UHGV virus genome: UHGV-0208172
Reading direction: 5' to 3' (one strand)
Length of the DNA: 45,009 bases
DNA from: a virus
In this document: positions 5,535 to 38,008 of the stretch, one piece after another
How positions within the stretch are numbered: position 1 is the first letter of the stretch
How the letters are laid out: the number at the start of each line of letters is the position of its first letter
Notes under the pieces: model-generated
What the model saw: only the letters and a program-made list of their open reading frames with translations
The model's database searches: none
Told to the model about the DNA's origin: nothing
Translations under genes and position numbers: made by a program

Positions 5535-5559
5535 AAGGCCCCATAACGGGGCCTTTTCT
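5535..5559. terminator. bidirectional rho-independent terminator between convergent tail and replication transcription units
   Basis: AAGGCCCC-ATAAC-GGGGCCTT hairpin followed by TTTTCTC; U-rich on both sides. Confidence 0.6.
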
Positions 5560-5697
5560 CTACTCTTCAGATAACTTCTCCAGTACAAACGCCAGTTGTG
5601 CATTAGCGGCGTCTCTTTGCTGCCGTAGTCGTAGAACCTCCTCTTCAAGTTCCTTGATACGTTTTTGCAATGCTGGAATAGGGGCTATGATGTTCAT
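5560..5697 (-). CDS. small hypothetical coiled-coil protein (45 aa)
   Basis: ATG overlaps stop of upstream gene (ATGA coupling); MNIIAPIPALQKRIKELEEEV... ; ends at the terminator; below the ORF-track size cut-off. Confidence 0.3.
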   Translation of the reverse strand: MNIIAPIPALQKRIKELEEEVLRLRQQRDAANAQLAFVLEKLSEE

Positions 5698-5879
5698 TTC
5701 TTACCTTCGCTTTTCTTGAAACTGCGCTTTATGTCCGGCAGCGTGTAGCAGCGTGACTTTTCGTATTTACCGTCCGAGCTTACCAAAACAAAGCTGTTGC
5801 CATCTTTTGATATGTACTCGATGGTGAAAGTATTGAATGAATGTACGCTGTATATTTCATCGCCGACATTAAGTTTCAT
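5694..5879 (-). CDS. hypothetical protein (61 aa)
   Basis: ORF translationally coupled to the helicase gene stop. Confidence 0.45.
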   Translation of the reverse strand: MKLNVGDEIYSVHSFNTFTIEYISKDGNSFVLVSSDGKYEKSRCYTLPDIKRSFKKSEGKK

Positions 5880-7300
5880 TTCTTACCTCGTCTCTTCATG
5901 TAATTAAGCAACTCTTCCTGGACCGATTTCTTCTCGTCTGTGCGCGCGGCGACAACCTCGTCCAGCGTGTCTTTAGCAACTATGTGATACAGGAACACCG
6001 GGCGCTCGTGCCCTGCCTGCTTCTGGCGGACAGGGCCTATACGCTCAACGACCTGCAGATAGTGCTCAAGGTTCCAGCCTTGTGAAATAAACGCCAGATG
6101 GTGACCTCCGTCCTGTAAATTCAAACCATGCCCGGCTGACGCGGGATGCACGCATAGGATTTCGATTTCACCGCGGTTCCACGCTTCCATCTGCTTATTC
6201 CCCTTAGCGCCTTTGGTAAATGCCTGTGCTTGCGGGAATCGCTTAAGGATGCGATCCAGTTCGTGCTTGAACTGATAGGCCACCAGTAACGGTGCACCCT
6301 GTAACTCCTCAACGATAGACTCCAGCGCATCCAGTTTCGTGTCGTGCACTTTCTCCCAGTCTTTGGTTGCTTCGCCGTCCGCCCCCGAAACATACACGGC
6401 ACCGGAGGCAATCTGCAGACACTTAGATATCTTCGCCGCCGCGTTAGCCGCTTCGACTTCGCCGCTTTCCAGTTCCGCGAATAACTTCTCCTCCATGTCG
6501 ATATACGTCTGACGCGCCTTCTTCGGCAGGTCAATTTCAACCGGTACGATAATCGGCGCTTCACAACCGAACCACTCGGAGGGGTCGATAGTCAGGCTGA
6601 TGTCTTTCATCTTCTGATGAATCTCATTATCGGCACCCGGTCGTGCGTGATACTCACGTGCCATAGCCGATTTTCCTTTCTGTACTGAGTTAAACCAGCG
6701 GTCAGTGAATGCCGTATACGATGAGCCGAGGCGTTCGCCTCCATCGATAAACCAGTTCTGGCCCCACAAGTCTTTTAGGCCGTTCGGTGACGGTGTTCCT
6801 GTCAGGTTGATGAAACGCTTAACCTTACCGAACGCCACTTTACTGAGCGCCTTTGCACGCTTGCTTCCACCAGAACGGCTGCGGAACGATTTAAGCTTCG
6901 TGCTTTCATCGGCAACGATAACCGTAAAAGGCCAGTCGTCTTTGCCGTAGTAGTCAATCAGCCACTCGATAACTTCGTAGTTCGTACACACCACGTTAGC
7001 GTCCGACTCCAGCGCTGCGATACGGCGCTTCTCTGAACCGGTCGCATCGACGACATGCAGACACGGGAAGTTCCATTTCTCTTGTTCTGCGGGCCATGTA
7101 CCTGACGCAACACGCAGGGGAGCTAGGATTAACACGCGGTCCTCTTCGGTAAGCTGCCCGTTGCGGAACAATCGGTTGAGCACCCACATAGTAGAGGATG
7201 TTTTACCACCTCCCATACCGCACCATATATTACAGCGCGGGTGTTGCAGCATAAACGAAGTCATGAGCTTCTGGTATTCGCGCCTTTGAAACTTAGACAT
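5876..7300 (-). CDS. SNF2/DEAD-like superfamily 2 DNA helicase
   Basis: Walker A GMGGGKT, DExx box VIVADEST, LTGTP motif, C-terminal helicase domain; 474 aa. Confidence 0.85.
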   Translation of the reverse strand: MSKFQRREYQKLMTSFMLQHPRCNIWCGMGGGKTSSTMWVLNRLFRNGQLTEEDRVLILAPLRVASGTWPAEQEKWNFPCLHVVDATGSEKRRIAALESDANVVCTNYEVIEWLIDYYGKDDWPFTVIVADESTKLKSFRSRSGGSKRAKALSKVAFGKVKRFINLTGTPSPNGLKDLWGQNWFIDGGERLGSSYTAFTDRWFNSVQKGKSAMAREYHARPGADNEIHQKMKDISLTIDPSEWFGCEAPIIVPVEIDLPKKARQTYIDMEEKLFAELESGEVEAANAAAKISKCLQIASGAVYVSGADGEATKDWEKVHDTKLDALESIVEELQGAPLLVAYQFKHELDRILKRFPQAQAFTKGAKGNKQMEAWNRGEIEILCVHPASAGHGLNLQDGGHHLAFISQGWNLEHYLQVVERIGPVRQKQAGHERPVFLYHIVAKDTLDEVVAARTDEKKSVQEELLNYMKRRGKK

Positions 7301-7949
7301 GATTGGCCTCGTAAACTGCTTTTGCGAAACCCCGCGGAGTAAGAGACCGAAGTTGCTTAGTTCTCGCCGAAGCTCCGCCCAAGTATTTCCACCCCCAAAA
7401 ACAACCTATATGTGGAACCGGTTTTTTCTCCGGCATCGCAAAACCGTTACCGGCCCATATGCACGTCTTCTTAGTATAGGCGTCGCGTTTCGGCATCTTA
7501 GGGTGAAATACATCTTCACTTCCGTCCATATAGCCGCCGTACTCAAACGGGTTAAAATAATAGTTTGGCTTACGCCACAACGTTGACAGCTTACCTACCG
7601 GGTTTTCTACCATCCACGGTGACCCGTATACTCGGCCTAACCGTTCAGCCACCTTAGCGGTAGCAACGGCGGTATCTATTACGGATTGTTGCCGTTGGTG
7701 TTTCTCCCCACATCCGGCTAAGTCTGTACAACTAGGGAATGCGAAAATAATATCTGGCTCCGGGAAGTCGGAGAAACAGGAGTTAGGCGAGATGAACTTA
7801 TTCACGTATATAATGTTTTCATGCTGCACGCGCATTTCATACGCCCCGTGGTCAGCTCCGTCGTAGTTGAAACAATAGCAAGTATGGCCTGCTTCCGCCC
7901 ACGGCTGGGCCATAAGGCCCGAACCGTCAAACAATGACCAGACAATCAT
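7293..7949 (-). CDS. compact DNA cytosine-C5 methyltransferase-like protein
   Basis: 218 aa; motif I-like LFDGSG, Pro-Cys-like PSC, ENV motif (WMVENPVG), C-terminal LTPRGF resembling motif IX/X; unusually short. Confidence 0.55.
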   Translation of the reverse strand: MIVWSLFDGSGLMAQPWAEAGHTCYCFNYDGADHGAYEMRVQHENIIYVNKFISPNSCFSDFPEPDIIFAFPSCTDLAGCGEKHQRQQSVIDTAVATAKVAERLGRVYGSPWMVENPVGKLSTLWRKPNYYFNPFEYGGYMDGSEDVFHPKMPKRDAYTKKTCIWAGNGFAMPEKKPVPHIGCFWGWKYLGGASARTKQLRSLTPRGFAKAVYEANHV

Positions 7950-8137
7950 TTCGCCACCAGCACCAGCTCTTTACGCCCGAACGCCGTGACATTACCGGTT
8001 ACATCTTCAATGACCAGTTTACCGTTCGATTCGACGAACACCGTATCTACGGCGGCAGGACGACGGGTCTTAACGTTGAAAATCATGTCGCCCGGTACGA
8101 TGTCACGTGCTGGTTTGCGGTCATATTCGTGTTTCAT
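7946..8137 (-). CDS. hypothetical protein (63 aa)
   Basis: ORF with RBS AAGGAA; 30 nt downstream of a TTGACG-N17-TATAGT promoter. Confidence 0.5.
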   Translation of the reverse strand: MKHEYDRKPARDIVPGDMIFNVKTRRPAAVDTVFVESNGKLVIEDVTGNVTAFGRKELVLVAK

Positions 8138-8167
8138 TTCTCAATTCCTTATATTGTTGGTGTAGGA

Positions 8168-8452
8168 TTAACTATAATAGTTTGCTATTAGGTCGTCAAC
8201 CTGTTTAAACGACCCGACGACAAAAACATTTGCACCGCGTTTACGCATCCGCTCGTGCTCACGTAACTGGTGCGGGTCTGGCTTCGTGTTTTCGTCTTTC
8301 TTCACCTCGACGAACCAGACGATGCCGCCGGGGAGAATTACCAGCAGGTCAGGTGCGCCGGAACGTCCTTCGTAGGAAAGTTTACGAACGAGACCCCCCA
8401 GGGCCTCGAATCGCTCCTTTGCATATTTCTGTACGCGCCCTTCCGGGGTCAT
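8168..8452 (-). CDS. VRR-NUC domain nuclease
   Basis: 94 aa; PD-(D/E)XK-type signature GAPDLLVILPGGIVWFVEVKK. Confidence 0.75.
   Translation of the reverse strand: MTPEGRVQKYAKERFEALGGLVRKLSYEGRSGAPDLLVILPGGIVWFVEVKKDENTKPDPHQLREHERMRKRGANVFVVGSFKQVDDLIANYYS
8171..8199 (-). promoter_or_regulatory. sigma70-like promoter (class B: TTGACG-N17-TATAGT) embedded in the 3' end of the VRR-NUC gene
   Basis: Read on - strand: TTGACG ACCTAATAGCAAACTAT TATAGT; same architecture as promoters at 11967 and 14705. Confidence 0.5.
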
Positions 8453-8601
8453 GAGTGCAGAATCCAGGTAAGGAAAGCCCCGCCTAGAACGGCAACCCCG
8501 ACAAACTTAAAGAACAGGCCGTAACAGAACATCGCAGCTATTCCGGCGCCAAGTAACAGTGCGAGCATGGTTACTATCGTCCAAAATACAAACATTGTCA
8601 T
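8449..8601 (-). CDS. small hydrophobic membrane protein (50 aa), alternative to the overlapping 8507..8815 ORF
   Basis: ATG with RBS GGGAGGGG; MTMFVFWTIVTMLALLLGAGIAAMFCYGLFF...; stop overlaps VRR-NUC start (ATGA). Confidence 0.35.
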   Translation of the reverse strand: MTMFVFWTIVTMLALLLGAGIAAMFCYGLFFKFVGVAVLGGAFLTWILHS

Positions 8602-8815
8602 AATACGCACCCCTCCCGTTTCGTATGCTCAATCCCGCAGCGCGGACAGATTCGGCAGTCTTCTTCATAGAACCAGTAAATTTTCGTTCCAGCACCCACA
8701 GATAAATTGCGATGAACATACCCAATACGGCGACCATCATGCCGTATTGACCCTCGTGACAGTAGACACCGGCGGCAAATCCCGCCAGTATCGCGATAAT
8801 CAGTTTACTTAGCAT
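8507..8815 (-). CDS. hypothetical protein with hydrophobic N-terminus (frame conflict with 8449..8601)
   Basis: 102-aa ORF; N-terminal half membrane-like, C-terminal half low plausibility. Confidence 0.3.
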   Translation of the reverse strand: MLSKLIIAILAGFAAGVYCHEGQYGMMVAVLGMFIAIYLWVLERKFTGSMKKTAESVRAAGLSIRNGRGAYYDNVCILDDSNHARTVTWRRNSCDVLLRPVL

Positions 8816-11244: not shown

Positions 11245-11267
11245 AAAAAGGCCCAATGAAGGGCCTT
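11245..11267 (-). terminator. rho-independent terminator downstream of SSB-like gene
   Basis: AAGGCCC-TTCATT-GGGCCTT hairpin followed by TTTTT on - strand. Confidence 0.5.
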
Positions 11268-11999: not shown

Positions 12000-13241
12000 T
12001 TATTCCAAATCTTCTTCACTAACCTGATTCCAACCGAAGCTGTTAAAGTGATACCGGAAGAAGAACTGAAAGACTTCATCACACGTAAGCCAGGTGCCCA
12101 GTTCTTCTTCCGGTATCACTTTAACAGCTTCGGTTGGCGTCATGAGCACTTCTTTAGTCAGCTTGTCGCCGTAGAGTTCTGCTACTTTCTCTGCGTCTTT
12201 CCACGCACGGTTGCCCATCTTACCCTCCACCAGCTTGTACCCAGGAACTTTCTTACCGGAATGCAATGCGGCGGACATCGCTTTCTCAACCTTGTCGATG
12301 TGCTGGCGCAACAGCGGCAACTTCTCATACTCAACTACGAGTTGCTCCGGCGTCAGTTCCAGCACAAAGTCGTCTTCAAGTTCTTCCGCCAGTACCGCGT
12401 TAACGGTTTTTGTACGCGCGGCGCATTGTTCAGAGAACCGGCACCACTGACAACCATCGACCGACGGCCTGAAGTCCGATGCTTTCAGGTTCTTTTTACC
12501 GCGGAAATAAGCATCAAGCGCTAACAGTGCGCGTTTCTGCGCGAACTTAGCGAACAGTTCCAGACCTTCAACCGAGATGTCCCACTCCGACGCACCGCCT
12601 GCGTACGGCTGAAAGATGACCAGGCGAACAACTGTGATGTTATAACGTCTCTTGAGTCGGCGATAAACACCGAGAGCGTAAAGCATAAGCTGCTTGTTTT
12701 CTTTCGCTTCGACACGATGTCGTCCAGTTTTAAGGTCGCCGATGATTAGCATGTGTTCGTCGGTGTTAGCCAGTTCCTGCACGGCAACAAGGTCGGCCGT
12801 TCCGAACGTCTCAACGCCTTCATACCCCGGATGCAACACCTCAGTAAGATTTACCCGCATTTCCAGCTTGGCGTAAGTCGCTACGTCGATAATTGGTTTG
12901 CAGTAGTCGGTGTACTTGCGCACCTGCTCAATCATGTCCGCCGTAATCAGTACCGCGCCTTTCATCGGGCTAATTAGCGCCTTAATCTGGCCTTTACCCT
13001 CGTCCAGCACGTAAGCACCTACCTCGCGCTCTAATGGCAACGCAGTGCCTTTTATATACTGGTTTAGATGGACCTCAGCTATAGTGTGACATGCGGTTCC
13101 TGTAACGGCGGCTTTACCGGACGTGTTAGGAATATCTTTTTCACAGGCCAGGGATGCAGCGCAACTTAGCCACTTTTTAGCGCCAGACGGTGACAGTAAA
13201 GCGTGCACATCGTTATTGCCGCCGCGTTCCTTTAAAATCAT
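12000..13241 (-). CDS. Cas4/RecB-like PD-(D/E)XK nuclease with Fe-S cysteine cluster (DUF2800-type)
   Basis: 413 aa; N-terminal SPSGAKKWLSC, nuclease motifs DLVAV / IGDLKTG / QLMLYAL, C-terminal CQWCRFSEQC (C-x2-C-x5-C). Confidence 0.7.
   Translation of the reverse strand: MILKERGGNNDVHALLSPSGAKKWLSCAASLACEKDIPNTSGKAAVTGTACHTIAEVHLNQYIKGTALPLEREVGAYVLDEGKGQIKALISPMKGAVLITADMIEQVRKYTDYCKPIIDVATYAKLEMRVNLTEVLHPGYEGVETFGTADLVAVQELANTDEHMLIIGDLKTGRHRVEAKENKQLMLYALGVYRRLKRRYNITVVRLVIFQPYAGGASEWDISVEGLELFAKFAQKRALLALDAYFRGKKNLKASDFRPSVDGCQWCRFSEQCAARTKTVNAVLAEELEDDFVLELTPEQLVVEYEKLPLLRQHIDKVEKAMSAALHSGKKVPGYKLVEGKMGNRAWKDAEKVAELYGDKLTKEVLMTPTEAVKVIPEEELGTWLTCDEVFQFFFRYHFNSFGWNQVSEEDLE
12030..12137. 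repeat. perfect 39-bp inverted repeat (arms 12030-12068 and 12099-12137, 30-nt spacer) inside the nuclease coding sequence
   Basis: Arm 1 CCAACCGAAGCTGTTAAAGTGATACCGGAAGAAGAACTG is the exact reverse complement of arm 2. Confidence 0.85.
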
Positions 13242-14704: not shown

Positions 14705-14733
14705 ACTATAATAGCTAACTATTCACGTGTCAA
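14705..14733 (-). promoter_or_regulatory. sigma70-like promoter (class B: TTGACA-N17-TATAGT) with GTGAATAGT operator-like core
   Basis: Read on - strand: TTGACA CGTGAATAGTTAGCTAT TATAGT; 30 nt upstream of ATG at 14673. Confidence 0.55.
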
Positions 14734-14737
14734 CGGG

Positions 14738-14766
14738 CTTTTATAAAATAATTAATATGGTACTAT
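14738..14766 (+). promoter_or_regulatory. putative weak rightward promoter for the Cro-like gene (-10 TACTAT, AT-rich -35 region), divergent from promoter at 14705
   Basis: TACTATTCAC -10 region identical to class A promoters; poor -35 (CTTTTA). Confidence 0.35.
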
Positions 14767-14797
14767 TCACATATCAACTGACTAAGGAGTAATTGAC

Positions 14798-15013
14798 ATG
14801 CAACCATCTGAACTAGGCATTCGCGTAGAACAACGCCGTAAAGAACTCGGCATCTCCCAGCGCCGTCTGGCTGTCCTGGCCGGCGTTTCCCAGGGCGCGA
14901 TTAACCAGCTTGCACTCGGTGTAACTCAGGACGTCCGCCCGGCAACGCTGTTTAAACTGGCGGAAGTGCTGGAAGTAGACGCCAAGTGGCTGGCGTTAGG
15001 TGAAGGGGCTTAA
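14798..15013 (+). CDS. XRE-family helix-turn-helix transcriptional regulator (Cro/CI-like)
   Basis: 71 aa; HTH QRRLAVLAGVSQGAINQLALG; RBS AAGGAG; only + strand gene within the leftward module. Confidence 0.8.
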   Translation: MQPSELGIRVEQRRKELGISQRRLAVLAGVSQGAINQLALGVTQDVRPATLFKLAEVLEVDAKWLALGEGA

Positions 15014-15029
15014 GCCCCTTTCTTTTTAC

Positions 15030-17297
15030 CTATTCCAAATCCTCCTCTGTCACTGTCAGCATTTCATTCGGTTCGTATATTGTCTTCGGAATCTTGTTAT
15101 CCGTTATCCTGGTGTTAAGCCGGTAGCGGCCAGGTATTATCTGATTGTTTTCGTCGGTTCCTGGCACAAGATACCCCGCCTCAACCATTTTCTTGATCTT
15201 CCCGCGTTCTATAGCTTCTTTGGAGTTAAACGCCTTCGCGTTGGGGTCGGACTGTGCGAGCTTATTAGCTGCGGCTACCGTGATACCTTCGTTGCCGTTG
15301 TAGGTTCCTTCCGCCAGTTCAAACGCCGCCAGTATCGTGGCCTCCGAACTGTTGACGGCGTTCTCTACGGTTTTACGTACGTTTTCTTTACCTTCTTTCG
15401 ACAGCCCCTCTTCCCGCTCTTTCTCCTCGTCGGTCTTGAACGGCTCGAAGCCCCACGGCATCAGCACAAGCGCTTTGTGCGGCTCTGGCAGGTCCAGGTT
15501 TACGATTGTGCCGTATTCCTCTGTGCTACCGAGGAACTCAACCGCGCGGTATTCTTTCGGCGGCGGGGCTTCGCGGAACTGTACCGACTCCAGCACCATG
15601 CCAACCGTCTTCTGTTGGGGTCCGTGTTTGAATTTCGAGTGGTATACATTTATCTGACGGTCTGTCGCGCGTTCGATTGTCAGTTCCACGTCGACACCCG
15701 CGTACAGCGCCCCACTGCCACGGGCTTTCTTCCCGCCCTTAGGCGTATGGTGGACGACGCCCACCGCGGCTTTAGTCGCATCACGTACTTCTTTCAGGAT
15801 GGCGATAACTTTACCCATGCCGATTGCCGTTGATGAGCTGTTCTCGTCGAACTTATCAATCGTCAGGGCCAGCGTCTGGTTGAGGGTGTCGAACGCAACC
15901 ATGCCAATAGGCTCGTCGCCAGCGGTTTCGCGCATTAGCTTAATCAGGCTTTTCAGTTTTCCGACTTCACCCATGTCGATGACATGTACATAATCTTTAC
16001 CTTCCGCGCCATATTTAGCCGCGAGCGCATCAATACGTGTACGTGTGGCGGCGCCGCCCTCGCCGTCGATATAGAAATGGTGGCAACGCTGGGTATCCGC
16101 CCCCGCAAACCGGTATCCGGCGGCGCTGAGGTACATCATCCCCATCGTATAGAATGATTTGTACGTGCCAGATTCCCCGACAATATCCCAGATACAATCC
16201 GACGGCATGTACCCCTCAACGACGAAATCAGCCTTTACCGGTTCTGGTAACTCGTCCCCCTCTGAGTCCTCATCGTCTTCCAGGTCGTCGAGGCTGCATG
16301 AAACAGATTCACGCGCACCCCATCCTATAGCCTCAGCCACTTCACTGAACGGCAGCCCGGTCGCATCGCACGCATACTTCCACACCTCTTTCGGCGACAT
16401 ACCTTCGGTTGCCGTAATGTCGGTGTCGTGAATCATGGTTACGTTCGGCGCTTCATATCCCTCGCGTGGGAAGCACAACAGGAAGTCGTCCGGGCGCGGC
16501 GTCGGGTCGCTGTAGTTTTCTGCGTGTTCATGTGTAGCTGGCATCTTAAGGCCTCGGGGGGTCATGATGCCACCGTACTCGAACGCCAGTGCCTCGAACG
16601 CGTCTGTAAACGCGGTGCGCAGTTCTTCCGGTATCTGGTAGTCAGATGCGCTGCTCACCTCGTAATCCGGGATGCCTTCCAGTAATTCGTCCGGGTCAAT
16701 CAGGTCGTTACGGCGCGACCAGATAACAGTAGAGCCAACCGGCGGCAGGTACATAGGCTGGGACAGAGTGAAACCGCTGCGGTCAGCGCCCATGCCTTTG
16801 AAGAAGTGCTCCAGCAAGCCATGACGAACACGGATGATGTCTCCGCCTTCAACCGGGCGGCCCAGCGGCATGACGACACGAAAGCGCGGTGACTCATCGG
16901 TATGTGATGCCGTGGTATAGATACACATTGCCTGGCGGCTGCGCTTAACCAGGCGCACCGCTTCCTGATACTCTTCCGGCGTCGCACTGTCGAAGTCAAG
17001 ATACGCCAGCGATGATTTGCTTACAGACGCGTCACAGCGGTAGAAGAAGCCTTTGCGCGCTTGCTTAAAGTCACCGGTTTCCGGGTCTTTTACGGTGCTG
17101 TGCGTTGAGTCACACGCGGCAGTGATATAACCAGGCGCGGTCTTAGGGTTAATCCCGTCGCGAACGGCATCGAGCGGCCGGATTAACTCTTTCAGGTCGT
17201 CCAGTGTTGCCGTGTGTGTGGTTCTGACGTTTATATCCTTTTTCTCCGCCCGCGCGTTGCGACGAGACCACGAGTAGGATAAAATTACATCGGACAT
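15030..17297 (-). CDS. primase-helicase (N-terminal primase-like region, C-terminal RecA/DnaB-like AAA ATPase)
   Basis: 755 aa; Walker A GESGTYKS, Walker B-like IGMVAFD; ends with EEDLE. Confidence 0.75.
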   Translation of the reverse strand: MSDVILSYSWSRRNARAEKKDINVRTTHTATLDDLKELIRPLDAVRDGINPKTAPGYITAACDSTHSTVKDPETGDFKQARKGFFYRCDASVSKSSLAYLDFDSATPEEYQEAVRLVKRSRQAMCIYTTASHTDESPRFRVVMPLGRPVEGGDIIRVRHGLLEHFFKGMGADRSGFTLSQPMYLPPVGSTVIWSRRNDLIDPDELLEGIPDYEVSSASDYQIPEELRTAFTDAFEALAFEYGGIMTPRGLKMPATHEHAENYSDPTPRPDDFLLCFPREGYEAPNVTMIHDTDITATEGMSPKEVWKYACDATGLPFSEVAEAIGWGARESVSCSLDDLEDDEDSEGDELPEPVKADFVVEGYMPSDCIWDIVGESGTYKSFYTMGMMYLSAAGYRFAGADTQRCHHFYIDGEGGAATRTRIDALAAKYGAEGKDYVHVIDMGEVGKLKSLIKLMRETAGDEPIGMVAFDTLNQTLALTIDKFDENSSSTAIGMGKVIAILKEVRDATKAAVGVVHHTPKGGKKARGSGALYAGVDVELTIERATDRQINVYHSKFKHGPQQKTVGMVLESVQFREAPPPKEYRAVEFLGSTEEYGTIVNLDLPEPHKALVLMPWGFEPFKTDEEKEREEGLSKEGKENVRKTVENAVNSSEATILAAFELAEGTYNGNEGITVAAANKLAQSDPNAKAFNSKEAIERGKIKKMVEAGYLVPGTDENNQIIPGRYRLNTRITDNKIPKTIYEPNEMLTVTEEDLE

Positions 17298-17355
17298 GTT
17301 GTATTTCCTTCAGCAAGTAATTTGGCCTCGGCGTTCACCGCGTCGGGGCTTTCTT

Positions 17356-18331: not shown

Positions 18332-18360
18332 TTGCACACCCCAACATAATAGGATACTAT
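18332..18360 (+). promoter_or_regulatory. sigma70-like early promoter (class A: TTGCAC-N17-TACTAT) with conserved leader
   Basis: TTGCAC ACCCCAACATAATAGGA TACTAT TCACTTACCGAAACGAGA...GAGGAG; near-identical copies at 19738, 30714-30742 (-) and 40437-40465 (-). Confidence 0.6.
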
Positions 18361-18385
18361 TCACTTACCGAAACGAGACAGAGGA

Positions 18386-19737: not shown

Positions 19738-19766
19738 TTGCACACTGGGATAGAATAGACTACTAT
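19738..19766 (+). promoter_or_regulatory. sigma70-like early promoter (class A: TTGCAC-N17-TACTAT)
   Basis: TTGCAC ACTGGGATAGAATAGAC TACTAT TCATTTACACGAACGAGAGGAG. Confidence 0.55.
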
Positions 19767-19797
19767 TCATTTACACGAACGAGAGGAGAGGCTGAAG

Positions 19798-24632: not shown

Positions 24633-24811
24633 TTGAGATTTTGAGAGCTGCAAATGCCGCTGGCGACCTGGTGTTTTGGCTGGCCTTTCTCGGTGTGCTG
24701 ATAAAACAACCGACTTTGTTTAACAGTCTTCCCCGATATCTGTGGTGGCCTATGTTTTTAGGCATGGGTGTATCGGGCGTGGCGGGCATCCTGTTGTGGT
24801 TTTTCAAATGA
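24629..24811 (+). CDS. small membrane protein (two TM helices)
   Basis: 60 aa; ATGA coupling; two hydrophobic helices. Confidence 0.45.
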   Translation: MIEILRAANAAGDLVFWLAFLGVLIKQPTLFNSLPRYLWWPMFLGMGVSGVAGILLWFFK

Positions 24812-28317: not shown

Positions 28318-28328
28318 GTTCGCATATA

Positions 28329-28348
28329 GCCCCGAAAGGGGCTTTCTT
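28329..28348 (+). terminator. hairpin attenuator / weak terminator after portal gene
   Basis: AGCCCC-GAAA-GGGGCT followed by TTCTTA. Confidence 0.4.
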
Positions 28349-28353
28349 ATAGT

Positions 28354-29430
28354 ATGCTATTAACTTTAGTGCCACAGGATTTAACTATGAGCTTACTTAC
28401 ATCCCTAATCAGCCACCAGATATGGCTGCAACGCACCGCATCCGGTGAAGTGAAAGACCTTGCGCCGTTTCTTCAGGAAATGCGAGACGAAATCAAACGG
28501 CAGGTGCTGTTATTCGGCGACGACGGTCGCAGCACTGCGCGACTGAATAAATTGTTACGCGACCTGGAAGAAGCACTGAGCGGACTTACAGGCGACTGGC
28601 AAACAAAGCTGACAGAAGACCTTAAAGAACTGGCGGCGTATGAAGCGGAGTGGAATGTAAAAACGCTGACGGCTAACGTAGACGCGGAATTTGTTACGCC
28701 CACTGCTGAACAGGTGTGGGCCGCTGCCGAGTTTCAACCATTATCGTTAGGTGACAAGCCAGTCGACTTCACTAAGCTGATGGCAGGCTGGGGTGAAACA
28801 GAAGTCGCGCGCCTTGTAACCGGTGTTAAGATGGGTTTCGTTCAAGGCCTGACAACGCGGCAGATTGTTAAGAATGTCGTAGGCGCTGGCGGGCTGGCGG
28901 ACATCTCTGAGCGTAACGCAGCTACTGTAATCCGCACCGCGCTGTCCCATGTATCTAACGAAGCACGCAACGAGACGTACCGCCAGAACGACGACATCAT
29001 CGAGAAATATGAATGGGTGTCAACGCTGGACAGCCGTACCAGTACGATTTGCAGAGCCAAGGACGGTATGAAGTGGGAAATTGGTAAGGGGCCGATGCCC
29101 CCCGCCCATCCGAACTGTCGAAGTACCACTGCACCCGTAATCAGTTCGGAGTTCGACTTCCTGGATAAAGGCGCAAAACGCGCGGCTAAGGGCGCAGACG
29201 GCGGTACTCAGGTAAGCGCGGACACCACCTATTACGAGTTCCTGAAACAACAACCGGCATGGTTTCAGGATGAAGCACTCGGGCCAACCCGCGGTAAGAT
29301 TTTCCGCAACAGCGGTATATCGCCAGAAGAGTTTCGCGTAATATCTGTAGATGGTTTCGGGAATCCGCTCACGCTTAAGCAGATGGCGGAACTCGATAAA
29401 CGTGTTGCTGATTATCTGAAAGGGGATTAA
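28354..29430 (+). CDS. head morphogenesis protein (Mu F / SPP1 gp7-like by position)
   Basis: 358-aa ORF following portal; alternative start ATG 28387. Confidence 0.6.
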   Translation: MLLTLVPQDLTMSLLTSLISHQIWLQRTASGEVKDLAPFLQEMRDEIKRQVLLFGDDGRSTARLNKLLRDLEEALSGLTGDWQTKLTEDLKELAAYEAEWNVKTLTANVDAEFVTPTAEQVWAAAEFQPLSLGDKPVDFTKLMAGWGETEVARLVTGVKMGFVQGLTTRQIVKNVVGAGGLADISERNAATVIRTALSHVSNEARNETYRQNDDIIEKYEWVSTLDSRTSTICRAKDGMKWEIGKGPMPPAHPNCRSTTAPVISSEFDFLDKGAKRAAKGADGGTQVSADTTYYEFLKQQPAWFQDEALGPTRGKIFRNSGISPEEFRVISVDGFGNPLTLKQMAELDKRVADYLKGD

Positions 29431-29891
29431 TGATGGGCTTTTTCAAAGTAACTGATGTGCCGTCGCGTCGTGTAGTCCAGTACGCCCGCGTGTCTGGCTC
29501 CGGTGAGAACGTGGTATTTATTGAGGACGAAAGTGTACTTGGTACACCGGTAGACGACATGCCGTTTGCGGATAAAACCGGTATCGCGCTACCAGCGGCG
29601 GGCATGCTTTACGAGATTCCGTATCTGGCGGACGCTGGCGACGTATACTTCTCTGTGCAACCGAAAGACGCTGAACTGGCAGACGGCAGCGCAACTATCC
29701 CTGTTGAGGTTAAGGCAGGCAAAGCGCCGTATACTCTGACCTGGTACAAAGACGGTAAGGAAGTGGTAAACGCTCCGGAAGAGGCATTGTCTCTGACGGT
29801 TAATGCAGTTGGCGAATACTTCGTTAAAGTCGCCGATGCTGACGGCGTAGAGGCGGTAAGCAAAGCGGCGAAGGTTACTAAGCCAGAATGA
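29430..29891 (+). CDS. Ig-like domain-containing protein (possible capsid decoration)
   Basis: 153 aa; C-terminal YTLTWYKDGKEV...GEYFVKV I-set-like signature. Confidence 0.55.
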   Translation: MMGFFKVTDVPSRRVVQYARVSGSGENVVFIEDESVLGTPVDDMPFADKTGIALPAAGMLYEIPYLADAGDVYFSVQPKDAELADGSATIPVEVKAGKAPYTLTWYKDGKEVVNAPEEALSLTVNAVGEYFVKVADADGVEAVSKAAKVTKPE

Positions 29892-29893
29892 TA

Positions 29894-29916
29894 AAAGGCC
29901 CCATTATGGGGCCTTA
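29894..29916. terminator. bidirectional terminator (AAGGCCCC-ATTAT-GGGGCCTT)
   Basis: Hairpin between convergent + packaging genes and - moron; same family as 5535 and 37986. Confidence 0.6.
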
Positions 29917-30212
29917 ACTTTCCATACTTCCCTTAGCGCTACGAGTTTATGATTACCAATATCCCTTGATATTATTGAATCTGTAAAACCATTGAACCAT
30001 GATTTCATCCAGTCAGACGTTCTGAAATCGGCGTACAGAATATGTATTGTTTGCGGAGTGTCAACGTCGTAATGTTGGCACACATAAACACATCCGCTGG
30101 CGAATATAACAGCTTTAAACGTATCGTAGTCTTCTGAATCCGGGAACTCGCTGGAGTCCCCAACAAGATACCTGTACGCGTATTTTTTAGTAGTCTTCTT
30201 TCTTTTCCGCAT
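29904..30212 (-). CDS. hypothetical protein (102 aa), moron gene
   Basis: Track ORF; last codons lie within terminator hairpin. Confidence 0.45.
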   Translation of the reverse strand: MRKRKKTTKKYAYRYLVGDSSEFPDSEDYDTFKAVIFASGCVYVCQHYDVDTPQTIHILYADFRTSDWMKSWFNGFTDSIISRDIGNHKLVALREVWKVKAP

Positions 30213-30221
30213 AGTACTTTC

Positions 30222-30461
30222 TCAGAAGTGCCTGACGGGTTGTTTAAACTTCCAGTCACAATCTACCTGTTTAATAGCGCCTTTTGCAACAAGGCTGTCT
30301 ATGAAATCCTGGCCCGAATTCGTCTTGTACCACGTATATCTGTTCCCGACTTTTACTCCAGGTAGGCTGTGATACACAACGGCATCAACCACCATAAAAG
30401 AGACACCGATAGCCCCTTTCTCTGCATATAGTTTTTTGCTCACACTGCTCATGTAGCGCAT
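30222..30461 (-). CDS. hypothetical protein (79 aa), moron gene
   Basis: Track ORF in reverse 3-gene operon. Confidence 0.45.
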   Translation of the reverse strand: MRYMSSVSKKLYAEKGAIGVSFMVVDAVVYHSLPGVKVGNRYTWYKTNSGQDFIDSLVAKGAIKQVDCDWKFKQPVRHF

Positions 30462-30493
30462 CTCCCACGTAGATAGTTAGTAAGGTAAAGCCC

Positions 30494-30679
30494 TTAGGCC
30501 TTACGAATTGTATATCCATACCCGAGGTAGCCGTTTTTCTCTTGCATAGCGGAGGCGCGCAACATAGCAGCATTCTCGCCTTTTACTACAGCGACCACAT
30601 AATCCGTAGAGTCTGGGCCGTTTTCCACAACTTCATACGCCTGTACGTTCTTGGTGGTAAGTTCATATGTGTTAGTCAT
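30494..30679 (-). CDS. hypothetical protein (61 aa), moron gene
   Basis: First gene after class A promoter; RBS AAGGAA. Confidence 0.5.
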   Translation of the reverse strand: MTNTYELTTKNVQAYEVVENGPDSTDYVVAVVKGENAAMLRASAMQEKNGYLGYGYTIRKA

Positions 30680-30713
30680 TTCTAAATTCCTTATCTCTCG
30701 TTTCGATAAGTGA

Positions 30714-30742
30714 ATAGTATCCTATTATGTTGGGGTGTGCAA
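30714..30742 (-). promoter_or_regulatory. sigma70-like early promoter (class A: TTGCAC-N17-TACTAT), reverse orientation
   Basis: Read on - strand: TTGCAC ACCCCAACATAATAGGA TACTAT TCACTTATCGAAACGAGAGATAAGGAA...ATG. Confidence 0.6.
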
Positions 30743-30794
30743 ACTATTTGTTTACGTATTCCATATATTCCGCCTAATTGTAAATGTTGGAATA

Positions 30795-30837
30795 AACTAT
30801 TCGAATAGTTGACTTTTCACTGAAAATATGCTAAGCT
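30795..30837 (+). promoter_or_regulatory. putative rightward promoter (TTGACT-N17-TAAGCT) overlapped by perfect 16-bp palindrome AACTATTCGAATAGTT
   Basis: Palindrome 30795-30810 overlaps the -35 hexamer (30809-30814). Confidence 0.45.
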
Positions 30838-31016
30838 CCACCTGAGCTTGTGAAGTATGAACAAGCGACCGCGGCGCGGGCAGGTAACGGAGCGGGACGT
30901 AAGTCCTGAGTGTAGTTACGCTGACGCGTTCGGAAGGGCCATACTCTATTGCTTGTGTAAAAAGTAACTGGTTTACTGAGATTACGCCGTTTCTATGTTT
31001 AAATGATAAGGACTAG

Positions 31017-31039
31017 CGCCCCGCTTTAAGGCGGGGCTT
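31017..31039 (+). terminator. hairpin terminator/attenuator about 25 nt upstream of the spanin start codon
   Basis: GCCCCGC-TTTAAG-GCGGGGC followed by TTT. Confidence 0.45.
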
Positions 31040-31061
31040 TACTTATCGAGAAAGGAGAAAC

Positions 31062-31448
31062 ATGAATCTTAAAGCAACTGTCGTAGCAGGAGCATGTTCC
31101 ATCATCCTGGTCTACGCATACGGCATCTATCAGTACCGCAGCGGCTGGAGTGAAGGTCGGGCGAATCTCGTTTCGCAGCAACAGCAGAAAGCACTGGCCG
31201 AATTAGCTAAGAAAACACAACGGCAGCAGCAGGATGAATCAAAGGCCGCAGCCGCTGACAACGAAGGCAAGACGAAATCAGAGGTAATCACCCGTGAAGT
31301 CGTTAAGTACATTAAAACGCCTGGCCGCAGCGTGTGCGCTTTTGACCCTGAGCGCGTGCAGCTCAAGTCCCGCGCCGTCGCCAACGCCAATTCCATCCCC
31401 GGATACGACGATGATGCAGCCGCCGTGCAAGCTGGCCCCGCCAAGTAG
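31062..31448 (+). CDS. i-spanin (Rz-like inner membrane spanin)
   Basis: 128 aa; N-terminal TM VVAGACSIILVYAYGIY, Gln/Ala-rich coiled-coil; RBS AAGGAG; overlapped by embedded lipoprotein gene. Confidence 0.75.
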   Translation: MNLKATVVAGACSIILVYAYGIYQYRSGWSEGRANLVSQQQQKALAELAKKTQRQQQDESKAAAADNEGKTKSEVITREVVKYIKTPGRSVCAFDPERVQLKSRAVANANSIPGYDDDAAAVQAGPAK

Positions 31449-34847: not shown

Positions 34848-34849
34848 AA

Positions 34850-35464
34850 ATGGCGAAGACTAAAACAGAGATATTTACGCTAATCGGTTCAGAGCTACCT
34901 GATAACACGACCGGGCAAATCACGCCAGCGAAGTTACGTGGGGTGTTAACCCAGATGGCTGACTCACCTATTTACGCCACTCCAGGTGTTAAAGAGGTTG
35001 AAGTTCTCCGTGCTGCGTCGACCGTGACACAAGCGCCCACCGCGGTAGATACAGCGTTGCAGTTAACTTTCGGGGCCGCTCAGGGTAGCGCTTCTGACCC
35101 AGTAATGATTAATGCCGCAGGGCTGGTTACGTTCAACACCGCTGGTAACTACGCCGTTCGCATCAAGTTACAGGCCGGTCGCTCAGGCGCTAGTGGAACG
35201 TCCATCCTGTTGTCCCGCATTCTTCTCAATGGCGCCCAGTACGGTTCTCCGGCCGCCACGAAACTGGTAAGCGCCGATACTACAATCCCGATTGAATCTC
35301 GCGTCGTTATTAACCCCACCGCGGGCCAGACGTTTTCCGTGCAGATTATGCGGGATAGCGCCGGGAGCAACTTTGGTGGCGTATACCCGCAAGTGGCTAC
35401 CGTAACTGCATGGGGTACAGCTCCGTCCGCGCTACTGGTTATCTCTAGACTGGAGGCCGCGTAA
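34850..35464 (+). CDS. hypothetical structural protein
   Basis: 204 aa; in connector region. Confidence 0.45.
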   Translation: MAKTKTEIFTLIGSELPDNTTGQITPAKLRGVLTQMADSPIYATPGVKEVEVLRAASTVTQAPTAVDTALQLTFGAAQGSASDPVMINAAGLVTFNTAGNYAVRIKLQAGRSGASGTSILLSRILLNGAQYGSPAATKLVSADTTIPIESRVVINPTAGQTFSVQIMRDSAGSNFGGVYPQVATVTAWGTAPSALLVISRLEAA

Positions 35465-35823
35465 TGAGCACAGCTTTCAGTAAACGTATGCAAGGCGTGG
35501 GTACGCGCCTGCTAACCAAATTCGGCAGTACGGTATCTCTTGTTCGCGCTGGTTCGAAAGTATGGGATGAAGTTCTCGGTGAGTACGTCTGGTCCGCGGA
35601 TGAAGTGTTGCCGTTGAAGGCCGTTCCTGTTCCGGTAAACGCGGGACTGGTAAACGGTACGACGATTCAGGTGGGTGACATGATTGTTAAAGCGGATTGC
35701 AGTGTCGTTCCGAAGATGGAAGACAAAGTGCAATTCGGCGGCGAACAATGGTCTGTCGTAGCTATAGAGAAGAAGATGGTTAACGATGATGTCGTGGCAT
35801 ACTTTATTCAGGTGAGAAAATGA
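35464..35823 (+). CDS. putative head-tail joining protein
   Basis: 119 aa; ATGA coupling. Confidence 0.45.
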   Translation: MSTAFSKRMQGVGTRLLTKFGSTVSLVRAGSKVWDEVLGEYVWSADEVLPLKAVPVPVNAGLVNGTTIQVGDMIVKADCSVVPKMEDKVQFGGEQWSVVAIEKKMVNDDVVAYFIQVRK

Positions 35824-36215
35824 GTTTCTCGCTTGATGTCTCTAAGTTCGTGGAAAAGGCGAAGAAGAATCCCGAGAAGGTGATGCGTCAGGTGTCTATC
35901 AAGCTGTTTTCCGCTATCATAAAGGCGAGTCCGGTAGATACAGGCCGCTTTCGTATGAACTGGATGGCGTCTGGCGGTACTCCTGCTTCCGGGATTACGG
36001 ACGCTACAGATAAATCAGGAAACACGGCAACCGGAAACGCTACAAGTTTCGTGCTGAAAGCCGCTGACTGGCACGAGTTCACGCTGACAAATAACCTGCC
36101 GTATGCACAACGGCTGGAGTATGGTTGGTCGCAGCAAGCGCCACAAGGATTTGTCAGGGTGAACGTGTCCCGCTTCCAGCAACTCATTAACGAAGAAGCC
36201 AACAAGGTGAAATGA
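35820..36215 (+). CDS. putative neck / tail completion protein
   Basis: 131 aa; overlapping starts within connector module. Confidence 0.45.
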   Translation: MSFSLDVSKFVEKAKKNPEKVMRQVSIKLFSAIIKASPVDTGRFRMNWMASGGTPASGITDATDKSGNTATGNATSFVLKAADWHEFTLTNNLPYAQRLEYGWSQQAPQGFVRVNVSRFQQLINEEANKVK

Positions 36216-36350
36216 TGGACAAGTCACGTCGTCAATACTTCATACTCGCGTGCCATTGGCTGGCCGGAAGTAGGTACGATTTCGTCATGCTACATCTTAA
36301 TTTCGGAAAGTCACGAGTTATGGCGACGAAGGCTCGCGCTGTGGTAGCCT

Positions 36351-36809
36351 ATGACCGTCGTCTTGCCTCAGAAGAAAGTAAATGTGGGGTATATGATGGG
36401 CTACTTTGAGGACTTAACAAAAGCGTTCGATGTGCCGCTGGTAGCCTTCGGAACAACCAACGGCATCAAGGTCGCGCTTGAAAACATCGACGCGCCGACG
36501 TCAACCGATACACCGTATCTGGCAAGTTACATGCTGCTTTCGGATACGGAACAGGCGGATTTGTTCTTCACGGAACAACGCTCTGGTATTTATCAGGTCG
36601 ACATTAACTACGCATCGGTGAAAGGTAGCGCACCAATCAATAAAATGGCAGACTTACTTAACACGGCGTTTAAAGCAGGTAAGTCATTTTCGCGTAACGA
36701 CATCTGCGCCGAGGTTCAATCGGTTAGCCTGGGGCCGCTGATTGTAGAAAACGGATGGACCAAACGACCCTTGTCAATTAACTTTATTGCATTCACCAAG
36801 AGGCTGTGA
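36351..36809 (+). CDS. putative tail terminator / tail tube-associated protein
   Basis: About 140-152 aa; immediately upstream of major tail protein. Confidence 0.45.
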   Translation: MTVVLPQKKVNVGYMMGYFEDLTKAFDVPLVAFGTTNGIKVALENIDAPTSTDTPYLASYMLLSDTEQADLFFTEQRSGIYQVDINYASVKGSAPINKMADLLNTAFKAGKSFSRNDICAEVQSVSLGPLIVENGWTKRPLSINFIAFTKRL

Positions 36810-37981
36810 ATATGGCTACAACTCCTTTTAAGGGCGCGAATACCGCGCAATTCTATGTGGCGGAAGTTACCCCGGGCGTAACACCAAGTAACCCGGTATG
36901 GTCGCCGTTGCGTAACACCGGTGGTGTTCCAGCTGTAACTCGCGATGCGCTGACCTCCAACGAACTGGACGGCAGCCGAGAAACCACATCCATCCGAACC
37001 GGTAACAAGCAGGTTAGCGGGGAGTATGCCATCGAACTTAGCTCCCGTAGCCAGGATGATTTCCTCGCGGGCGCGATGACTTCTACGTGGCAGGATGGGG
37101 TAACCTTATCCGCTGTTGGCATTACGGTAGACCCTGTGGCTAAAACCTTTACCCGCGCCACCGGCAGCTTCATTACTGACGGCGTAGAGGTCGGGGACCT
37201 TCTGTATTTTGACGCTTTAACCGGTGATAACTCTAAGCCGTTCATCGTTACCGCAGTAACTGCTACTGTGGTTACGGGTGCAGGTATTCAACACACCCTG
37301 ACCGCCGAAGGTCCTATCGAGACCGACGGTAAAACTGGCGATAAACTGGAAACCAGTAACGCGTGTAAGACGTTCTCCATCCTGACATGGTTCAAAGGGC
37401 AGTGCGGGAACCCGGACGCGTACATGTTGACCAAAGGCGTGGAAATCTCCGGTTTCACCATCGAGCAGGCCGTAAACGCTATGGTAACCGGCAGCTTCCC
37501 GTTCATCGGTCTGAGCCAGGAAATTCTTACCGCGCCGCCGACAGGTTCCGACTTCTCTCAGGTCACATTCACTGATGAGCCGTTCTCGTCGGTTGATGTG
37601 TCTGTGTTCGACGGGTCCACGCCGTTGCGTTGCGATACTCTCACTATCACAAACGACAACGGTGCTTCTGCGCAGTTCGAACTCGGCAACAGTAGCGTTG
37701 CGTTCGTGGAACGTGGTCGCGCGGCTAACACCTTCTCCATCTCTGGTAAGCTGTACGACATGGCGATGATTCAGAAGTTTATCAACGAACAGCAGGTAGA
37801 GATTAACTCTATTCTGGCGGGGGTAAATGGGGCTATGTCTTTTAGTCTGAAACGTGCCGAACTTACGGCGGTTACACCTGAGATTGGCGGCCCTGAGTCA
37901 ATTACTCAGTCCATTGAAGGTCAGGCTACTGGAAACCAGTACCAGTCGTCTATTGTTATCCAGCGTATCGCCTATGCATAA
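36806..37981 (+). CDS. major tail (tube) protein
   Basis: 391 aa; followed by strong bidirectional terminator; position in tail module. Confidence 0.65.
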   Translation: MNMATTPFKGANTAQFYVAEVTPGVTPSNPVWSPLRNTGGVPAVTRDALTSNELDGSRETTSIRTGNKQVSGEYAIELSSRSQDDFLAGAMTSTWQDGVTLSAVGITVDPVAKTFTRATGSFITDGVEVGDLLYFDALTGDNSKPFIVTAVTATVVTGAGIQHTLTAEGPIETDGKTGDKLETSNACKTFSILTWFKGQCGNPDAYMLTKGVEISGFTIEQAVNAMVTGSFPFIGLSQEILTAPPTGSDFSQVTFTDEPFSSVDVSVFDGSTPLRCDTLTITNDNGASAQFELGNSSVAFVERGRAANTFSISGKLYDMAMIQKFINEQQVEINSILAGVNGAMSFSLKRAELTAVTPEIGGPESITQSIEGQATGNQYQSSIVIQRIAYA

Positions 37982-37985
37982 AACT

Positions 37986-38008
37986 AAGGCCCCGTTTGGG
38001 GCCTTTTT
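37986..38008. terminator. bidirectional rho-independent terminator (AAGGCCCC-GTTT-GGGGCCTT + T5)
   Basis: Hairpin plus TTTTT; separates major tail gene from convergent reverse cassette. Confidence 0.7.

Follow-up and report, generated by a model that had tools for sequence, protein, structure and literature searches.

Near-identical hairpins at convergent gene junctions of a Kagunavirus genome: candidate two-way terminators at the edges of accessory-gene swaps

Morons are autonomous promoter-gene-terminator units located between phage genes (the Juhala/Hendrix concept); the classic ones belong to temperate lambdoid phages and are usually expressed from the prophage. Related arrangements have been described in T4-type phages, in which PeSLs, consisting of a conserved sigma-70-like promoter and a terminator stem-loop, flank small, mostly ORFan genes, and in which indels and replacements map to these motifs (PMC2839356, PMC4122927). 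In Escherichia coli, a prevalent class of bidirectional terminators lies between convergent genes, where the hairpin sets the site of collision (10.1101/2022.10.23.513370, describing Ju et al. 2019). Here, we describe three near-identical hairpins (T1, T2 and T3; Table 1) in UHGV virus genome UHGV-0208172, a stretch of 45,009 nucleotides (nt) hereafter called the window. These hairpins are candidate terminators for both directions of transcription, and one of them closes a cassette of small genes that begins at a repeated promoter-like motif, P.

The window is the near-complete, 45 kb genome of an E. coli phage of the genus Kagunavirus (K1G-like; Guernseyvirinae), with the gene order of K1G. 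A megablast search of its first 25 kb against 50,697 phage records matched 489 records, with Escherichia phages K1G, K1ind, CR01 and UTEC10 among the best matches (~87-90% identity over ~70% of the query). The gene map was drawn from the list of open reading frames (ORFs), the annotation of K1G and of Kagunavirus Shashou, and PHROG/Pfam matches. No phage RNA polymerase is annotated in the K1G or Shashou records; host polymerase rules should therefore apply.

The pattern AAGGCCCC-N(3-7)-GGGGCCTT was found exactly three times in the window and not once in 100 dinucleotide-preserving shuffles, so that none would be expected by chance. The sequence-only reading from which this work started had proposed three near-identical hairpins with spacers of 4 or 5 nt, and these were recovered at 5535-5555, 29895-29915 and 37986-38005; its end points at 5559, 29916 and 38008 took in part of the tails, the stems and loops themselves being as proposed. 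It had also placed each hairpin at the meeting point of rightward and leftward transcription. On the ORF map, all three sites indeed have a plus-strand stop on one side and a minus-strand stop on the other, although a fourth, small convergent junction with a different hairpin had been missed. The hairpins occupy the gaps of 7-30 nt where plus- and minus-strand units meet, 3-4 nt from the plus-strand stops, with the minus-strand stops abutting them; T1 adjoins the 3' end of the minus-strand replication module. The stems are perfect, with 8-9 base pairs (bp) including six G-C and two A-U pairs, and close loops of 3-5 nt. The predicted folding energy of the hairpin RNA was approximately -15 kcal/mol on either strand, and -15 to -19 kcal/mol with the flanks included.

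Similarity among the sites extended beyond the stems. Sites 1 and 3 have cATAAAACT-AAGGCCCC...GGGGCCTT-TTyT in common, and site 2 corresponds to the same unit in inverted orientation in most relatives. The conserved unit spans approximately 5527-5567 at T1 (TAAAACT ... TTCTCTACTCTT) and 37978-38013 at T3. The ends of the adjoining genes were also examined. The tailspike (5525-5536) and tail tube (37976-37987) genes end in the identical string CA-TAA-AAC-TAA-GG, which provides two in-frame stops, the second of which forms the hairpin base. The minus-strand gene orf102 ends inside T2: its last codons, AAG GCC CCA (K-A-P), make up one arm, and its TAA stop (29904-29906) lies in the loop. In the relative L051 (3464-3486), the loop of the T2 equivalent differs but still provides a TAA stop.

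To describe the tails, we used a d'Aubenton-Carafa-type T-tract score, counted from the end of the G/C core (Table 1). T1 and T3 had a U-tract on both strands (UUUUCUCU and UUAGUUUUAU for T1, UUUUUCUU and UUAGUUUUAU for T3). T2 had a good U-tract on the minus strand (TTTTATCATTCT; UUUUAUCAUU) and a weak tail on the plus strand (TTAACTTTCC; UUAACUUUCC), where the score was marginal (2.17); because orf102 reads into the hairpin, the usual AGTTTTAT flank is replaced there. T1 and T3 thus look credible as predicted terminators in both directions, and T2 looks, in this genome, to serve mainly the minus-strand cassette. Overall, the hairpins combine the features of intrinsic terminators (a stable, GC-rich stem-loop, a U-tract and a position just after a stop codon) with those of bidirectional ones (a single hairpin between convergent genes, with an A-tract upstream and a T-tract downstream). 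Among relatives, 90-97% of 130 GGCCCC hairpins, orthologous or paralogous, located at convergent junctions reached a score of 2.0 or more for the tail on the weaker strand, versus 24% of 29 terminators between co-directional genes. The remaining strong hairpins of the window had a tail on one strand only. In a simple terminator scan, T1, T2 and T3 were among the strongest sites, and T3 was called on both strands.

To compare the hairpins across relatives, we performed three IMG/VR scans anchored on neighbouring conserved proteins, which yielded 41, 39 and 73 loci. The stem was nearly invariant at all three junctions, while the loops varied freely. Stem positions differed from the window by 3.5% at site 3 and by 7.7% at site 2, the latter figure being inflated by an alternative hairpin found at empty sites. 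In explicit alignments of the adjacent genes, third codon positions differed by 30-34% and second positions by 2-4%, so that the stems were about ten times more conserved than neighbouring third codon positions (~40-70 relatives). Where the stem did vary, it remained fully paired (GGGCC/GGCCC, GCCCC/GGGGC, and GGGGCC/GGCCCC in L034), which points to conservation of a structure rather than of a sequence recognised by a protein. The near-identity of the three copies had been ascribed beforehand to duplication or strong selection, and both explanations proved right: selection, because the stems differ so much less than the adjacent third codon positions; copying or spread, because the similarity of the copies extends into their flanks and because they accompany a cassette that occurs at two different genome sites.

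Concerted evolution of the three copies was tested and, as a rule, found no support. In a divergent clade, whose helicase is ~70% identical, the site-1 equivalent reads AAAAGGGCC-loop-GGCCCTTTT and site 3 stays AAAGGCCCC-GAAA-GGGGCCTTT; the three-fold identity is therefore lineage-specific and not obligatory. In some genomes (L004, L012 and L013, near 4175; L275, 12238-12275), the site-3 palindrome was longer, AAGGAAAAGGCCCC-GAAA-GGGGCCTTTTCCTT, with 14 pairs and clean T-tracts in both directions. In K1G, the hairpin is confined to the two convergent junctions; the site-2 position, where the genes are co-directional, has AAGCCCC-GAAA-GGGGCTTTT instead. A scan of viral contigs for the exact hairpin gave at least 120 stretches; with 16 specified bases, dozens of chance matches are expected, and the scan cannot show enrichment. 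It does show terminator-like flanks, with an A- and/or T-tract in 76 of the 84 copies from unrelated viral contigs among the matches listed, as for a generic good design.

On this evidence (stem, tails, conservation and independent predictors), which supports the bidirectional terminators proposed at the outset, the three hairpins are very probably two-way intrinsic (Rho-independent) terminators for the host RNA polymerase at the boundaries of convergent units. A palindromic stem that is A-rich on one side and T-rich on the other would encode a hairpin followed by a U-tract on both RNA strands, and a single element would stop polymerases arriving from either side. A G-U pair on one strand would be an A-C mismatch on the other, and a two-way terminator could not pass through G-U intermediates, which is a plausible reason why the stem sequence is effectively frozen. 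As in the bidirectional terminators of E. coli, a single stem-loop between convergent genes would serve both directions and fix the stop point. By the account of Wang et al. (10.1101/2022.10.23.513370), the E. coli class is unlike canonical intrinsic terminators and depends on polymerase collisions; the phage hairpins, by contrast, have a canonical intrinsic look on at least one strand, and their early and late units may not be transcribed together.

The terminator reading is not new, as predictions for two close relatives are already public. In the GenBank record of Shashou (MK931440), TransTermHP terminators are annotated at the site-3 equivalent (12245-12264, minus strand; 12249-12268, plus strand) and at the site-1 equivalent (24723-24744, minus strand; 24729-24750, plus strand), together with a terminator on the plus strand alone at the empty site 2 and a further one behind the cro-like gene. 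For phage Golestan, ARNold predictions (PMC7203180, Table S5) include GGCCCCGAAAGGGGCCTTAGTTTTATGC on the minus strand and GGCCCCTTTCGGGGCCTTTTTCTTACAA on the plus strand at one position (T06/T07), and GGCCCCGTTTGGGGCCTTAGTTTTAAGC on the minus strand after the tailspike (T09). These terminators are orthologous to ours, with the same junctions, stem (GGCCCC...GGGGCC) and tails (TTAGTTTTATGC and TTTTTCTTACAA); the sources merely list them and are silent on near-identity, mosaic breakpoints and loop inversion. With no cassette at site 2, Shashou and K1G carry the hairpin twice at these junctions, and Shashou has a third copy elsewhere. None of the first 60 GenBank relatives of the site-3 region had a terminator feature; the CPT-annotated Shashou record was the only one that did. 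A literature search on Jerseyvirinae terminators and Kagunavirus transcript ends returned nothing specific.

The P motif, TTGCACACCCCAACATAATAGGATACTAT (29 nt; -35 TTGCAC, 17 nt, -10 TACTAT), was found at 18332-18360 on the plus strand and at 30714-30742 and, with one mismatch, 40437-40465 on the minus strand, with none expected by chance. Its 20-nt core occurred in seven copies at up to four mismatches, and corresponds to the seven PHIRE 'promoters' of Golestan (PMC7203180, Table S4). From the copies at 30742 and 40465, the minus-strand units ending at T2 and at T3 both start at P. The P core holds an inverted repeat, TAATAG-N4-CTATT, overlapping the -10 element. This repeat is probably the operator of the cro/DicA-like helix-turn-helix (HTH) protein encoded at 14798-15013, whose own gene is preceded by two P-core copies. 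A perfect palindrome related to it, AACTATTCGAATAGTT (30795-30810), overlaps the -35 element of another predicted promoter, described below.

Homology breakpoints were located with blastn, the queries being the hairpins with 2.5 kb on either side and the subjects the related loci. Each of the three hairpins coincides exactly with a breakpoint between genomes, and they form the edges of accessory-gene swaps. At site 1, the 3' end of the tailspike gene was common to none of the 68 loci, and homology began at 5527/5528 with the TAAAACT flank. At site 2, coverage dropped from ~97% to 5% at 29916 and recovered near 30700; at site 3, it dropped from 98% to 39% at 38013. Rightward of T3, relatives retain the exonuclease gene and vary in the hairpin-adjacent genes, with dNMP (deoxynucleoside monophosphate) kinase and polynucleotide kinase in some genomes and unrelated ORFs of 68, 76, 164 or 238 amino acids (aa) in others. 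The distance from the helicase gene to T1 ranged from 141 to 681 nt. One genome, L063, has the cassette-type left flank and the empty-site right flank on either side of a GGCCCC...GGGGC hairpin and no cassette, as expected for a crossover or deletion inside the hairpin. Hybrid hairpins of this type (GGCCCC on the left, GGGGC on the right, one unpaired C) were observed in L048, L063 and L073 (near 3466), L051 (1094), L058 (1669), L064 (1096) and L018; those other than L063 may be homopolymer length errors.

L051 has the 856-nt window cassette, likewise at site 2 (93%); in L050, the cassette lies at the portal/head-morphogenesis junction (90%). The homologous stretch runs from AAAAGGCCCC to a point just beyond the -35 hexamer of P. 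Substitutions by codon position, e.g., 2/0/12 and 3/0/17 for orf102, were concentrated at third positions and introduced no stops, so the three cassette ORFs are real genes. None of them had a Pfam or PADLOC match, and only orf61 matched a PHROG, with no function assigned. In relatives, the portal/head-morphogenesis and Hoc/spanin junctions are each either empty, with a one-way (A)AGCCCC-GAAA-GGGGCT terminator, or occupied by T, cargo and a minus-strand P; in the window, the P-like core of the empty portal junction has 4 mismatches. Among the 39 site-2 loci, a gap of ~345 nt lacking a minus-strand ORF went with the GCCCC form, and a minus-strand insert (cargo ORFs of 57-239 aa) with AAAAGGCCCC-loop-GGGGCCTT; hybrids were few. 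In total, 38 units running from T to a minus-strand P carried 20 cargo families, two of which were found at both sites. Shashou, for example, has an extra minus-strand gene between portal and head morphogenesis, whose 3' end (AAAAGGCCCtGTTATGGGGCCTT plus AGTTTTATTTAA) has the unit and flank of site-2 cassettes and whose 5' end resembles that of the window cassette. The commonest cargo was a 173-aa protein (L275, Shashou, 3357-3878; L054, L058, L062, L071, L072, L076 and L077, near 3490-4040), sliding-clamp-like (DNA polymerase III) according to the Shashou annotation and present at both insertion sites in different genomes. Other cargos were ORFs of 67-239 aa with no assigned function.

By analogy, the PeSLs of T4-type phages are the closest described system. 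In both cases, repeated conserved terminator and promoter motifs flank variable small ORFs, and replacements map to the motifs. The present phage differs in being a 45 kb siphophage, in having unrelated motif sequences, and in having T and P at opposite ends of an antisense unit; since the cassette is inserted antisense to the late genes, its stem-loop falls at a convergent junction and must work in both directions. The PeSL composite, in which promoter and stem-loop are joined between co-directional genes, is not seen in the cassettes; the empty portal-junction site (28328-28366) alone resembles it, and there the P-like core is weak. The site-2 cassette is also moron-like, with a promoter-like motif, ORFs and a predicted terminator, and with presence or absence between two conserved genes: it is missing from K1G-type genomes and cleanly replaces the empty-site terminator. 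In contrast to the classic morons, the cassette belongs to a virulent phage, its promoter is an early-type motif that the phage itself repeats, and its ends stay conserved whichever of the many cargos lies between them.

Besides selection on the stem, common descent and spread would account for the near-identity of the copies, with the hairpin as the 3' end and P as the 5' end of minus-strand early units. A wider proposal, on which we are evenly balanced, is that Guernseyvirinae siphophages have a PeSL-like exchange system: a near-invariant, palindromic two-way terminator T and a near-invariant early promoter/operator P of ~50 nt would bound antisense cassettes in the late structural region, their cargo (at least 20 unrelated, mostly ORFan sets) would be swapped and moved between at least two sites by homologous recombination within T and P, and loop inversions would be scars of recombination or template switching. 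We infer that the T hairpins terminate transcription, that P is active as a promoter, and that exchange proceeds by recombination at T and P. We did not find an earlier description of the cassettes, breakpoints or loop inversions for this phage group, although they are of the PeSL and moron kind.

Comparison of orthologous loops revealed that they form reverse-complement pairs with unchanged arms, with 11 such pairs over the three sites (L002-L142). At site 3, the pairs TTTC/GAAA, GTTT/AAAC and GGAA/TTCC covered 38 of the 39 genomes; six pairs were found at site 2 and two at site 1. Random loop sets of the same size would give 0.08, 0.16 and 0.20 pairs, and none of 100,000 simulations reached the observed number for sites 2 and 3 (P = 0.013 for site 1). 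The GAAA/TTTC pair could partly reflect selection for a GNRA loop on either strand, which does not apply to GTTT/AAAC or to the 5-nt pairs. Inversions of small hairpin loops between short inverted repeats are familiar from chloroplast non-coding DNA, and E. coli undergoes quasipalindrome template-switch mutation; here, likewise, the loop is reverse-complemented and the arms are unchanged, repeatedly at orthologous sites. Either template switching inside the palindrome or a double crossover involving an inverted copy would account for the inversions. A literature search for loop inversion in phage terminators found no description. The T1 loop, ATAAC, is the complement of GTTAT, a recurrent loop of cassette hairpins.

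Several points weigh against two-way termination. No mapped transcript 3' ends were found in the literature for any Guernseyvirinae phage, and the RNA-seq study of K1B4 (PMC12645636) gives gene-level data only, with no terminator or 3'-end analysis. The minus-strand tails of T1 and T3 are interrupted (UUAGUUUUAUG) and the plus-strand tail of T2 is poor (UUAACUUUCC), so that termination efficiency in those directions may be low. With stops 3-4 nt from the stems, or in the loop for orf102, a close ribosome could disturb hairpin formation. Early minus-strand and late plus-strand units are perhaps not transcribed together, which would limit collision-assisted termination. Moreover, any perfect stem folds on both strands, and palindromy alone is no proof of two-way function. 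The hairpins could accordingly be ordinary terminators, each efficient in one direction only, that seem bidirectional just because a palindromic stem occupies a very short intergenic gap: the tail of T2 is clearly better on the minus strand (3.72 versus 2.17), the plus strand has the better tail at T1 (3.77) and T3 (4.29; 2.74 on the minus strand at both), and the weaker tails of T1 and T3 are broken by AG. We nevertheless consider this unlikely, as site 1 retains the A-rich TAAAACT flank even in genomes with an unrelated tailspike sequence upstream, the weaker-strand tails at convergent junctions far more often reach 2.0 than those of co-directional terminators, the extended site-3 palindrome is symmetric, and both strands were called by two prediction programs.

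A main selected role at the DNA level, with T and P acting as conserved PeSL-like linkers that guide homologous recombination and termination being secondary, would fit the exact breakpoints, the same cassette at two sites bounded by T and P, the 20 cargo families, the hybrid hairpin of L063 joining two flank types, and the PeSL precedent (PMC2839356, PMC4122927). Yet random recombination, filtered by selection for intact genes, should likewise leave breakpoints at gene ends, each arm of the stem offers only 8 bp of homology, and the kept pairing, the two-sided T-tracts and the placement right after stops are needs of a terminator and not of a recombination site. We thus regard it as quite unlikely to be the main role; the linker and terminator roles are compatible, so the former complements the terminator reading more than it competes with it. 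In general, stable hairpins at 3' ends protect transcripts, and the elements would sit at the 3' ends of both mRNAs, where they might mainly shield convergent transcripts from 3' exonucleases or act as processing sites. This post-transcriptional role appears improbable: it leaves unexplained the conserved T/A tracts and the switch to a one-sided terminator between co-directional genes, and a protective hairpin needs a nearby 3' end, which termination supplies, so that protection is likely a side benefit. Least credible, and highly improbable, is a palindromic DNA binding site for a phage or host protein (an operator, or the target of a nucleoid protein or structure-specific nuclease). The perfect dyad symmetry and the near-invariance of the arms within one lineage would suit it, but arm spacing varies (4 or 5 nt, occasionally more), the loop sequence is free, variant arms change sequence yet stay paired (GGGGCC/GGCCCC in L034; GGGCC/GGCCC in the divergent clade), unrelated viral contigs also carry the hairpin together with A/T tracts, and the real operator-like palindrome of this genome is a different sequence, inside P. 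Mobile hairpins of the REP/MITE type were rejected, as the copies, all restricted to gene ends, have neither terminal repeats nor target duplications. Finally, Rfam covariance models matched nowhere in the whole window at gathering score.

Table 1. Positions in the window of the hairpins, promoter-like motifs, cassettes and gene blocks; T-tract scores are given as plus strand / minus strand.
Feature	Position	Strand	Details
T1: AAGGCCCC-ATAAC-GGGGCCTT	5535..5555	both	tailspike stop 5528-5530 (+); 45-aa ORF stop 5560-5562 (-)
T2: AAAAGGCCCC-ATTAT-GGGGCCTT	29893..29915	both	Hoc-like head decoration stop 29889-29891 (+); 102-aa ORF (-)
T3: AAGGCCCC-GTTT-GGGGCCTT	37986..38005	both	tail tube/major tail stop 37979-37981 (+); dNMP-kinase-like stop 38010-38012 (-)
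T1 T-tract score	5535-5555	+ / -	3.77 / 2.74
T2 T-tract score	29895-29915	+ / -	2.17 / 3.72
T3 T-tract score	37986-38005	+ / -	4.29 / 2.74
Orthologous loop sites	5543-5547; 29903-29907; 37994-37997		loops of T1, T2 and T3
Hairpin AAGGGGC-TTAA-GCCCCTT plus TCTTTTTACC	15003..15020	+	fourth convergent junction; T-tract on one side only
Hairpin AAGGCCC-N6-GGGCCTT	11248..11267	-	gap between DNA polymerase and DUF2815 single-stranded DNA-binding genes; T-tract on minus strand only
Window cassette	29893..30748	-	T2 to P; orf61 30494-30679, orf79 30222-30461, orf102 29904-30212
P heading the site-2 cassette	30708..30742	-	TTGCACACCCCAACATAATAGGATACTAT plus TTCACTT
P heading the unit that ends at T3	40431..40465	-	one mismatch in the 29-nt motif
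P, exact copy, heading the early region	18332..18366	+	
Further P-core copies	19753-19772; 14709-14728; 14753-14772	+	the last two before the HTH gene
Empty second insertion site, portal/head-morphogenesis junction	28328..28366	+	one-way terminator AGCCCCGAAAGGGGCT, then weak P-like core TTATAGTATGCTATTAACTT
Genes of the unit from P to T3	superinfection immunity 40215-40421; exonuclease 39046-40176; polynucleotide kinase 38564-39049; dNMP-kinase-like 38010-38564	-	
Tail genes	ending with tailspike 3440-5530	+	precede T1
Replication module	5560 to ~18270	-	between T1 and the plus-strand early region
Early, lysis, terminase, portal and head genes	ending with Hoc-like gene 29430-29891	+	precede T2
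Three small ORFs	29904-30679	-	after T2
Spanin, scaffold, capsid and tail genes	ending with tail tube gene 36806-37981	+	precede T3
dNMP-kinase-like, polynucleotide kinase, exonuclease and superinfection-immunity genes	38010-40421	-	after T3
Tail chaperone and tape measure genes	running to window end	+	last block

Other hairpins were observed outside the three sites. At the fourth convergent junction, the HTH regulator gene (14798-15013, plus strand; PF01381, E 2e-12) ends at the 15003-15020 hairpin and meets the primase-helicase gene (15030-17297, minus strand). The equivalent of this hairpin is annotated as a plus-strand terminator in Shashou (MK931440) and as T11 in Golestan (PMC7203180). 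The HTH gene with its own one-way terminator (14798-15020) is thus embedded antisense in the minus-strand replication module. In the same module, the hairpin at 11248-11267, which corresponds to T10 in Golestan (PMC7203180, Table S5), is related to the T hairpins and one-way, with a stem one pair shorter. A strong plus-oriented terminator, GGCCTCGGCG...CGTCGGGGCT plus TTCTTTTATT (17324-17350), lies between two minus-strand genes with no plus-strand ORF of at least 50 aa upstream; its role may be to halt antisense transcription or to form the 3' end of a small RNA.

A non-coding block of ~270 nt (30790-31060, plus strand) was observed between the site-2 cassette and the spanin gene. It differed by 1-3% across 38 relatives, versus 10-19% in the adjacent spanin gene, and was ~100% identical to K1G over ~200 nt. 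A good predicted promoter (TTGACT at 30809-14, 17 nt, TGcTAAGCT) lies at its start and a predicted terminator (31018-31037) at its end, 25 nt before the spanin ATG. This layout recalls the lambda PR'-6S RNA-tR' arrangement ahead of the late operon. The Shashou annotation places a 36-aa ORF inside the block. Rfam gave no match for 30700-31100 at E≤1, and folding of the block (z-score -1.62) did not thermodynamically favour a structured RNA.

The hairpins are unremarkable as terminators. They delimit six major transcription blocks of the genome, which is useful for annotation, and they are a compact candidate two-way terminator part for synthetic biology in E. coli. If the exchange system holds, their near-identity would be kept partly as homology that enables exchange. 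T and P provide reliable sequence handles for the accessory-gene slots of Kagunavirus and Jerseyvirus, a large and therapeutically used group, and small early genes, which are candidates for host takeover, anti-defence or superinfection exclusion, are concentrated in these slots. With two sites and 20 cargos between the same flanks of 23 bp and ~50 bp, these phages offer a clean natural data set on the old question of whether phage mosaicism owes more to conserved linker sequences or to random recombination with subsequent selection.

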